Shown piece by piece: positions 3,001-6,339 of a stretch of 64,000 nt of DNA. Position 1 is the first letter of the stretch, and each line of letters starts with the position of its first letter. Origin of the DNA: Lama glama (lineage: Eukaryota). A program made the translations under genes and the position numbers. The stretch covers positions 6,572,001 through 6,636,000 of the forward strand of contig CM052851.1 in NCBI GenBank assembly GCA_028534125.1, written 5' to 3'. The notes below the pieces were generated by a model, which worked only from the letters and a program-made list of their open reading frames with translations, was not told the DNA's origin and did not search any database.

Positions 3001-4077
3001 TGCAGTCCCCCTCCCATCCCTTGCTGTGTATGGTGACATCATGGTCTGGGTTTAAAGGGCCAGTCTAGGAGAAGCAAAGCATCAGAGCAGGAGATGCTCC
3101 CTGGTGCAACCACCCTACTCCAGGCATGCTGGCCTCCCTGGATGGGACTCCCAGCCCCTCTCGGCCCTAAGGTGTGTTAGTAGGGTCTTTTGTTCAAAAC
3201 CCTCCTGCAGGGTATCCAAGGCACAGGTAGAATTCCAGGGGTTTGGCATTCCTGCCAAAAGTTCCCAACCTGCAATCCTGGGCCCCCTTCCTAGCACTCT
3301 GGACCCCAACACCCTTCATTCTCTTGGACTCTGTCCCCTGTACTACACTGTGAAATGTCCACCCAGACGTTTTGCCTGGATGAGCAACTGGTCCATGTGA
3401 ACATCAGGAGTGGTCAATGAGACCTGGCAACAAAGTGAGGGAGGGGCCCTTTTCAGAGTTTCCATACCCTGCCTTCAGTCTTGCTGACCACTCAATGCCC
3501 CAGTAGAACCACCCAGCCACCTTCCTTGCTGCAGGGAAAGCCTGGGTGCCCAAGACGTGCCCACCTGCTGGAGCAATAAAAAAACAAAAGCCACAGCTTA
3601 GCCAGGCTGAGATCTATGAGCAAACTCCCTGCTTGACAGGCCTTGTCCATCTTGGCCCTGGTGTCTTCATTTGTTAAATGAAAACATTTATTAAATGAAA
3701 AACCCATCTTCCAGGCTCAGGAGATGAAGCCTCTCCCATACTCCTATAGAAAAAGCTAGGGTAGGGCAGGCCCACCAAGCCTTCTACAACAAGGTATGGA
3801 CCCTGAGGCCCAGAAAGAAGTGCTTTGCCCAAGGTTACATAGTCTGTTATCAAAAGCTGGGACCAAGGTACAGTCCCCTACCTCCCAGTCTAAGTCAAGA
3901 GGACACCAGCTCCGACCTCCCACCCCAGGCCCCTGGGGGCTGGTGCCCTGGTCCCTGAGGATCTCCAGGCCAGGCTGGTCATGGAGGATTTGTGCTTTGT
4001 ACAAAGCAGTTGCTTGGTTTGAGGACTGGGGCACTAAAGGGTGGAGAACAGACATAAGACTTCCTATAAGAAGTGGC

Positions 4078-4490
4078 TTTTTTCTTAATGATCATATTTT
4101 ACTATCTATCTGTTTATTTATTTATTTATTTATTTATTTATTACCTTTTAATATATTTTTATTGAAGTATAGTCAGTTTACAATGTTATGTCATTATCTG
4201 GTGTACAGCACAATACTTCAGTCATATGGGAACATGCGTATATTCGTTTTCATATTCTTTTTAACCGTAAGTTACTACAAGATACTGAATATAATTCCCT
4301 GTGCTATACAGTAGAAACTTGTTTATCGGATTTGCTGAGAATCCTCCTGTATTTTGAAATGAGAGACCCTCTGCCAGAGTTCAGTAGGTGTTCTGTGCAA
4401 TTCAATGGGTTTGTAGATGTAATTCTTGGTGTATTTGTGGAAGAGGGCGAGCTGTGAGTCTCTCTACTCCACCATCTTGGCTCAACCCCT
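4078..4490 (-). mobile_element. Bipartite L1-derived retroelement (L1 5' terminus fused to L1 3' terminus + A-rich tail) with target-site duplication
   Basis: Minus strand starts AGGGGTTGAGCCAAGATGGTGGAGTAG (L1 5' end-type, YY1-like), joins at 4327/4326 to ATAAACAAGTTTCTACTGTATAGCACAGGGAA...CTATACTTCAATAAA (artiodactyl-type L1 3' end) and a (TAAA)n tail; flanked by AGAAGTGGC at 4069-4077 and 4491-4499. Confidence 0.8.
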
Positions 4491-4552
4491 AGAAGTGGCC
4501 TTTGAAGTGGGTCTCAAAATAGAAACAATGTCACCTGGGGGACAGAGAGTTA

Positions 4553-4760
4553 AAAATTTTTAAATCATCTTTATTGAGACAGAATTCACATATTATAAAA
4601 TTCACCCATTTTCATGTTATTGTTTAAGAGTATGGGTTTTGCAAGATGAAAAAGTTCAGTTTAGGTGCACAATAATGTGGCTATACTTAACACTACTGCA
4701 TTGTACTTTTAGAAATGGTTAAGATGATAAAATTTATCATGTGTATTTTACCCCAATTTA
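4553..4760. mobile_element. Old L1 (L1M-type) 3' end fragments in both orientations
   Basis: tttattgagacagaattcacat..aaaattcacccattt (minus 3' end) followed by gatgaaaaagttc..cttaacactactg..aaatggttaagatg..tgtattttaccccaat (plus 3' end). Confidence 0.6.
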
Positions 4761-5744
4761 GACAAAATGCAAAATCCAGGCCCTTCACCATGGACCAAGT
4801 CAAAAGCCACAGCCTCCAGGCTACCTTCCAGAATCCCTTTTATATCTATCCTGATCCCACTGAGGAAATTCCCAGAGGGGCTTCTTCTGGGTGGGCAATC
4901 CCTGGGGAAGGGCGAACCTCACCTCAGGGCTCCTGAGGTCTAGGGCACATGGTTGCCTGATAATTTTCCACCTAATCTGATGTGGGGAGGCCCTCAAGTG
5001 GCCCCACAAAGCCTAGCTCTCCTGCTTTTTTTTCTATGGGGAGGAACCCTAGTCCTATGCTTCCCCAGACCTCTTGAGTCCTCTGAAATCCAGTTGTCCA
5101 GTGCCAAAGGCCATTGTATTTGTTAGCACTGCTGGACCTAAAGTGGACCCCAGGACTTCATCCCAGAAATACCCCTATGGGGTTCCCAATACCATTTTCC
5201 CTAAGAGAACAGTATCCCCTTTACCCTGCTTGTATTTTTTATTCTCTCGTTCAGCTCCTACTTCAAGGCCTGGGTCAGGTTGTGAGATGACTATATCTCT
5301 CGAGTTGGATTTCTGTGGAGCTCACTGCAAGGACTCTTCTGCCCCTCTGAGTCCTGTCTACTTCTCTGCTGTGGCACAGACACTGCACTATGTCCTGGCT
5401 GCAGACGGAATCAGGCTCAGAGTAGATTCAAAGTCACCCACTGCTAAGAGATAGAGGTGGCTCCTAGTAAAGTTACAATGAAAGACATGAGTGCAGCCTT
5501 AGTGGAGGGAAGCCAGTCCAGGAAGCAGCCACTCCAGATTGGAGATCAAGATATTGGGGATGGCCTTGTGTCCCCAACCTTTGCATATAGTATGTTCCAT
5601 TCCCACTACAGGAGAATAGTAGCTCCTTCCTAGACTGAACATAAGGACAACTTTTCCTAGATTCTAGAAGCTGCTTTTCTATTCCCACTGTCTTTGGGAG
5701 AAATGATGTTTGTTCATTTACTTGCTTCACAAGCACTTAGGCAC

Positions 5745-5910
5745 ACAGCCTCAGTTTTCCTCTCTCGTAAAATGGGAATATTAATAATGCCTCCCTCGTG
5801 TGCCTGAGTAGTAAAGAACAGATGAGATCATGCATGTAAAGTGACAAACCCAGTGTCCAGGACATCACATTAGCTCAATTCATGGTATCTATTACTTTTA
5901 TTATTAATTT
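5745..5910 (+). mobile_element. MIR SINE fragment
   Basis: gcctcagttttcctc..gtaaaatgggaata..ataatgcct..gatgagatcatgcatgtaaagtg core. Confidence 0.65.
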
Positions 5911-6339
5911 AATAAACACTCGATGAACACAACTCTGCCCCTGGCCTCATGGGGGTCAGGCAGGTCGCTTGATTCATTCCACAAGCATTTTTGAAGCAAC
6001 CATTGTATTAGCCATCCTCCTTGAATGGGGCTTTCCTAGTGTTTCCCACAATTCTCTCAGACTGTAACCCAGTCCTTTCCAGGTAAAGAATTGTCCTGCC
6101 TACTAACCCAGCCCTAGGTTAAAGGGGATAAAACAAGTTCACAGAGGAGCAGTGACTTGCCTGAAGTCACAGAGAGCTGGAAATGGAATCAAGATCCCTG
6201 CGCCTGAGGCCAGGGAGGTTGCCCTTGCTTCAGGCAGACTTTTGGCTTTAGATTTCAGTAGAGTCCATCTCCCTAGTAAGGCTTAAGTGGAATTATAATT
6301 ACCTGTTGATATCTCTTAAGCCTTCATGATACAACTGGG

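Follow-up and report, generated by a model that had tools for sequence, protein, structure and literature searches.

How did the first and the last part of a LINE-1 (L1) element come to stand side by side in one insertion, without coding sequence between them, and does such a unit multiply on its own account? The question is raised by a 409-nt insert in the window, that is, in the whole stretch of 64,000 nucleotides from Lama glama that was analysed here. An earlier note on this DNA had proposed that an L1 RNA was spliced and then retrotransposed as one unit, and that the product could behave as a SINE-like family. In what follows, copies of the joined unit are called minis, and the unspliced elements that carry the same head or tail are called parents.

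Results

The joined unit lies on the minus strand at 4082..4490 and runs from 4490 to 4082. It begins with a 164-nt L1 head ("exon 1", 4327..4490), which is the start of the L1 5'UTR, opens with a G-run (AGGGG), and contains near its start an AAGATGG core (4472..4478) that we take to be a YY1 site. At G4327/A4326 (4326..4327) the head is joined directly to an L1 tail ("exon 2", 4158..4326) of subfamily B haplotype, comprising the last 169 nt of the 3'UTR up to the AATAAA at 4163-4158, and behind it stands a decayed poly(A) tail (4082..4157), degenerate and A-rich, with an (AATA)n microsatellite. The whole is enclosed by a single target site duplication (TSD) of 13 bp with one mismatch between its copies, which are located on the minus strand at 4491..4503, on the element's 5' side, and at 4069..4081, behind the tail. 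The earlier note had described this arrangement, a 164-nt minus-strand segment joined to a 3' segment and an A-rich tail within one TSD, and it is seen as claimed; its assignment of both halves to the ends of L1 also holds, as unspliced copies of the head lead into the L1 body and the tail ends the L1 3'UTR. An Rfam scan of 3500-5100 gave two weak chance matches only, with no RNA family at the insert and no match to a tRNA, 7SL, or 5S RNA, the Pol III transcripts that supply the head of a SINE. Beside the insert, at 4560-4790, the window is AT-rich and may hold older L1 3'-end fragments, which it resembles.

The joint recurs throughout the genome. When a 70-nt junction query was compared with the animal's own genome, matches were found in all 40 scored candidates (the best 40 of 246), and a 24-mer pattern over the joint gave 91 exact matches against none for the reversed control. 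Examination of 150 loci, 142 of them distinct, identified head-plus-tail minis at 113, at least three of which are one locus assembled repeatedly; two further minis have damaged tails that fell below the cut-off. Most minis have their 5' end in the G-run with which the L1 begins, and about 100 copies of different subfamilies share the joint to the base. Of the 109 scorable copies, 60 reached a TSD score of at least 9, as compared with 3, 3, 3, 6, and 10 in five shuffles of the flanks. The junction is thus multicopy with independent TSDs, and a fixed GT/AG joint that recurs with its own TSDs also upholds the view that post-insertion deletion, 5' truncation, or twin-priming inversion does not account for the unit.

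A hand count with an 18-mer head anchor, over 200 of the 222 matches listed, yielded approximately 91 minis and 104 unspliced-type heads, in addition to three alternative-acceptor minis and two intra-UTR joints; the anchor filter loses minis with the short AAC form. Minis and unspliced heads therefore stand at about 1:1, a ratio that may be inflated by the loss of long copies from autosomes, as the L1-rich contig C37 holds 23 of 81 unspliced heads versus 10 of 72 minis in hand counts. When decay of the anchor at 6.5% divergence is allowed for, the total probably comes to a few hundred minis.

The head in the window ends with ...AAATCCG, and unspliced copies run on with GTAAGA at the same point. 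Among 60 fetched head copies, GTAAGA follows the head in 47 and GTAA or GTAG in 55, while among the rest two more retain GT, one is without it, and one is an intra-UTR splice product. CCG plus GTAAGA fits seven of the nine positions of the donor consensus. In parents the tail is preceded by AAAATAG (1323 and 1499 exact tail matches for the two AAC-indel forms), and AG, not GG, precedes the tail in nearly all matches listed. A GT donor after the 5' part and an AG-ended stretch before the 3' part, both inferred in the earlier note, are accordingly present in the parents. Upstream of the acceptor, a branch-type motif is seen as TACTRAY in 39 of 60 parent tails and as TACTAAC in 20; of the 39 tails, 32 have the branch A at -19, and in 35 no AG intervenes before the acceptor. 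The acceptor is located approximately 170 nt ahead of the poly(A) signal, in a TA-repeat and A-rich region. Loose ends of public contigs at 4327 carry this parent sequence upstream of the tail as well. A polypyrimidine tract is absent at this 3'UTR acceptor, and its strength is therefore doubtful. The two parent ends overlap at the joint by one base (G) and are loosely alike (AAAAT..G.TAA). Six of 113 minis, spread over different subfamilies, have G at +1; we do not read them as a separate joint, as approximately four to five are expected by A>G mutation alone.

The same donor is also joined to other acceptors. L171-L173, which have different heads, use the AG that comes next, 9-12 nt beyond the main acceptor, and in L037 (the same locus as L170) and L174 the partners are two AG sites within the 5'UTR, both pyrimidine-rich. 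L247 and L266 are longer minis; here the main 3'UTR acceptor is paired with a further GT, which lies 268 nt beyond the usual one. All of these alternative joints lie on GT or AG boundaries and show no sequence likeness to the main site, whereas ordinary internal deletions in the same parents have scattered positions, many with overlaps of 2-9 nt. Such cross-use of donors and acceptors, together with the one-base overlap, fits splicing and not deletion.

Two other L1 5' head types, represented by L252 (approximately 5880-6150, element strand) and L362, each have a donor-like GTAGG about equally far from their start. A search for minis from the L252-type head gave a single non-G match, located on a small contig, and the control gave just as many, which makes this a weak negative result.

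Unspliced heads continue through a GC-rich 5'UTR into ORF1 and ORF2, and in full-length copies the tail is found 6.3-6.8 kb past the head. Head and tail markers split the copies into subfamilies A and B, and the 5' and 3' markers are linked both in 103 minis (Fisher p 2.6e-12, best pair) and in 30 two-ended parents (p 6.4e-7); the mini set consists of the 113 plus one, with ten dropped for truncation, N, or duplication. The copy in the window belongs to subfamily B at both ends, and both tail forms of the AAC indel are present in parents and minis. Therefore, both halves of a mini come from the same L1 subfamily, with markers linked as in two-ended parents, which removes the earlier concern that they might not, and minis arose from several subfamilies.

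The parents include a HAL1-like element. In 12 of 32 two-ended copies (L160, L161, L162, L170, L231, L232, L235, L236, L239, L240, L257, and L259) one shared non-GT/AG joint removes ORF2, and these copies, mostly of approximately 2.8-2.9 kb, keep the 5'UTR, ORF1, and the 3'UTR with the same donor and acceptor. L170 is intra-UTR spliced and HAL1-like at once. All 12 belong to subfamily A and none to subfamily B, which in the sample has L1 parents only; because of this, A-type minis may come from a shorter intron, and some minis may have lost ORF1 only, from ORF2-less HAL1-like parents. The proposal that ORF1 and ORF2 were removed as a single intron thus stands for full-length parents (6.3-6.8 kb), but possibly not for minis derived from HAL1-like parents, which make up 12 of the 32 two-ended parents.

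A different L1 tail type, with 4872 exact matches, is nested inside A/B copies and is therefore likely younger. Among 20 copies of it (L361-L380), the branch segment is gone in ten, two of these being too truncated or masked to judge, and the other ten carry an extra AG between the branch motif and the acceptor. The old head was not found at 53 younger-tail matches preceded by a pyrimidine-purine pair (30 with loci, 13 of them printed in full, and 23 judged on a 12-base context). As a hypothesis, L1 may have escaped from splicing via a damaged acceptor region. Eight 5'-truncated younger tails (L338, L343, L345, L352, L356, L357, L358, and L360) start no more than 1-2 bases away from the acceptor. 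Several of them have clear TSDs; the coincidence is possibly just an artefact of the search pattern.

We also compared minis and parents for signs of separate descent. At non-CpG sites, minis differ from the majority sequence of their subfamily by 6.5% and parents by 6.7-7.2%, and the distances among minis (0.12) and between minis and parents (0.12-0.13) are nearly equal. The phylogeny is star-like, and minis interleave with parents; there is one mini-only clade, with ten members and a support of 0.93. Its haplotype is a mini in three of the first 30 of 82 genome matches, the haplotype of the window copy is a mini in none of the first 30 of 149, and the markers of the clade are also found in ordinary L1 tails. 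When heads alone were compared, in 103 minis and 63 parents, 64 of the 103 minis had another mini as their nearest neighbour (63.7 expected), and no mini-specific allele survived correction. The sole allele that passes is a parent head variant rare in minis (1/103 versus 12/63, p 4e-5). The AAC indel was considered as a mini-specific marker and rejected, as both of its forms are common in ordinary tails. The minis are probably dead ends without a lineage of their own, at a resolution (approximately 300 columns at 6.5% divergence) that small secondary bursts would escape. With minis interleaved among parents and carrying no diagnostic changes of their own, the Pol II-driven, self-propagating SINE-like family of the earlier note is unsupported; nor do minis form the subfamilies of their own for which it had proposed to look in a tree, the mini-enriched haplotypes being mostly ordinary L1 tails.

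Two RNA-labelled contig sets (X1 and X2) have depth profiles that track the DNA-like run X16; they look like carried-over DNA and thus show neither transcription nor splicing. The raw RNA reads of run X24 include none at the element. No spliced read was seen, and the RNA data speak neither for nor against splicing.

Discussion

We consider it highly probable that the minis are dispersed retrocopies of an L1 head and tail, formed each time by splicing of an L1 or HAL1-like transcript, moved in trans, and left as dead ends. Fixed GT/AG-bounded joints, TSDs, and tails are found in copies from several parent subfamilies, and the signals at the joint make the spliceosome the likely cutter. Transcription by Pol II would start at the L1 head, and the major spliceosome would remove an intron of 6.5 kb (or 2.8 kb), with the strong branch point presumably offsetting the weak pyrimidine tract. 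The polyadenylated RNA of approximately 350 nt would then be exported and would undergo target-primed reverse transcription by ORF2p, which must be supposed to come from another L1, in trans, as the mini RNA has no ORF. It is possible that short length spared most copies 5' truncation and later loss. Several findings count against this explanation, namely the missing polypyrimidine tract, the G at +1 in 6/113 minis, the head variant nearly missing from minis, the ten-mini clade at support 0.93, and the mini to head ratio of approximately 1:1, which is high for trans-mobilisation and would be explained more easily by some re-amplification.

Re-amplification has accordingly to be weighed. If splicing made the first minis and some of them became masters, transcribed by Pol II from the promoter start that they keep and re-amplified in the manner of a SINE family, then the retention of a head with the AAGATGG core and of a poly(A) signal, the many minis relative to unspliced heads, and the mini-only clade would all be accommodated. 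We nevertheless regard this course of events as unlikely, given that the haplotypes of the clade and of the window copy are minis in three and none of their first 30 matches, that no mini-specific allele remains after correction, that the nearest-neighbour count is at chance, and that the minis are as old as their parents; in addition, human SpIREs were found to have reduced promoter activity (Larson et al. 2018, PMC5860796).

The remaining explanations dispense with splicing. The loose likeness of the parent ends (AAAAT..G.TAA), the internal deletions with 2-9 nt overlaps that are common in this lineage, the six minis with G at +1, and the want of a polypyrimidine tract could all point to recurrent template jumping by reverse transcriptase, or to microhomology-guided repair, between similar A-rich stretches. 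Such deletions are scattered, however, whereas about 100 minis of different subfamilies share one joint to the base and the alternative joints all fall on GT/AG boundaries that are unlike the main site in sequence, and we give this explanation very little weight. Alternatively, one ancient genomic deletion may have founded a single bipartite master (SIDE), as apparently occurred for the HAL1-like element, whose 12 copies with one non-GT/AG joint demonstrate that one deletion can found a family. This is barely credible for the minis. Their linked 5'/3' markers are those of two or more L1 subfamilies and of several sub-subfamilies, a diversity that a single master could not produce, and the idea could be saved only by supposing massive gene conversion in both halves.

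Formation by splicing places the minis close to human SpIREs. As described by Larson et al. (2018, PMC5860796), these are retrocopies of spliced L1 RNA (SpIRE97/622, 97/790, and 97/976) in which one 5'UTR donor is used with several acceptors; they recur across subfamilies, are read as dead ends, and number 131 of 6,609 full-length L1s, about 2%. The intra-5'UTR type also exists in this genome (L037 and L174). At the DNA level, the minis have what defines a SpIRE in general, that is, GT/AG bounds, a TSD with an A-rich tail, recurrence across subfamilies, and a branch motif. However, they fall outside the described subclasses (intra-5'UTR; 5'UTR/ORF1 with ORF2 retained), as their acceptor is in the 3'UTR and 6.3-6.8 kb is gone. 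Units of approximately 350 bp are left without an ORF, both proteins are needed in trans, and minis are approximately as common as unspliced heads, in contrast to the 131/6,609 reported in humans. L1 RNA has been shown to be spliced from 5'UTR donors, with testis products that can equal full-length RNA in abundance (Belancio et al. 2010, PMC2896524); the SpORF2 product of that study differs in that ORF1 is removed and ORF2 kept, and no 5'UTR-to-3'UTR product is described in the portion of it consulted.

The minis also resemble short bipartite elements of other LINE clades. ORF-less bipartite non-autonomous LINEs have been listed from RTE, Ingi, Vingi, and R2 sources only (Kojima 2018, PMC5786205, in the text available), and a bipartite SIDE from CR1 has been reported (Wang et al. 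2019, PMC6740152). Like the minis, SIDEs consist of nothing but the two ends of a LINE, have no coding sequence, and are moved by a partner LINE. They are described, however, as internal deletions that replicate as families, with L1 not a listed source and splicing unmentioned in the main texts of PMC5786205 and PMC6740152, whereas the mini joint is a likely splice junction that was made repeatedly, and the minis show no lineage of their own. The minis thus share with SIDEs the possession of ends only and a multicopy state, but not replication from short masters of their own, small secondary bursts being below resolution. HAL1 (half-L1; Bao and Jurka 2010, as cited in the parts of PMC5786205 and PMC13756887 considered) is a non-autonomous L1 derivative in which both ends are likewise kept, and the HAL1-like element of this genome, with the same head and tail, is a possible mini parent. 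HAL1 differs in retaining ORF1, as the 409-nt mini is without any ORF, and the joint of the HAL1-like element is non-GT/AG. We found no description of a 5'UTR-to-3'UTR spliced L1 family among the papers listed in literature searches, and a survey of camel transposable elements (PMC8605555) names no such family in the part considered. On our best reading, the minis were moved in trans and constitute a 5'UTR-to-3'UTR class of SpIRE that is new by comparison with the published descriptions considered.

The minis are probably dead ends with an age of tens of millions of years, and for this reason they matter less than a self-propagating family would. They extend SpIREs beyond humans and to an extreme in which the whole coding body is lost as one intron, and they supply an ORF-less bipartite derivative of L1, a class that Kojima (2018, PMC5786205) lists, in the text available, only for other LINE clades. 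With this, splicing is pointed to as a route to ORF-less bipartite elements. The minis are also a natural measure of the trans-mobilisation of non-coding Pol II RNA by L1, and in repeat annotation they are probably either broken up into two L1 fragments or taken for L1 heads.

Finally, the L1 3'UTR offers a testable case of splice signals shaping its evolution. We tentatively suggest, as a possibility that we hold to be somewhat doubtful, that an L1 lineage with a near-perfect 3'UTR branch point and acceptor spliced a sizeable share of its RNA into a gene-less parasite of 350 nt, that this RNA took over L1 machinery in trans so effectively that minis came to match unspliced heads in number, and that deletion or disruption of the branch-point region later freed the lineage, whereupon the minis ceased. 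If this were true, the genome would hold both an ORF-less bipartite mammalian L1 derivative and a fossil record of how an L1 evolved to avoid being spliced.
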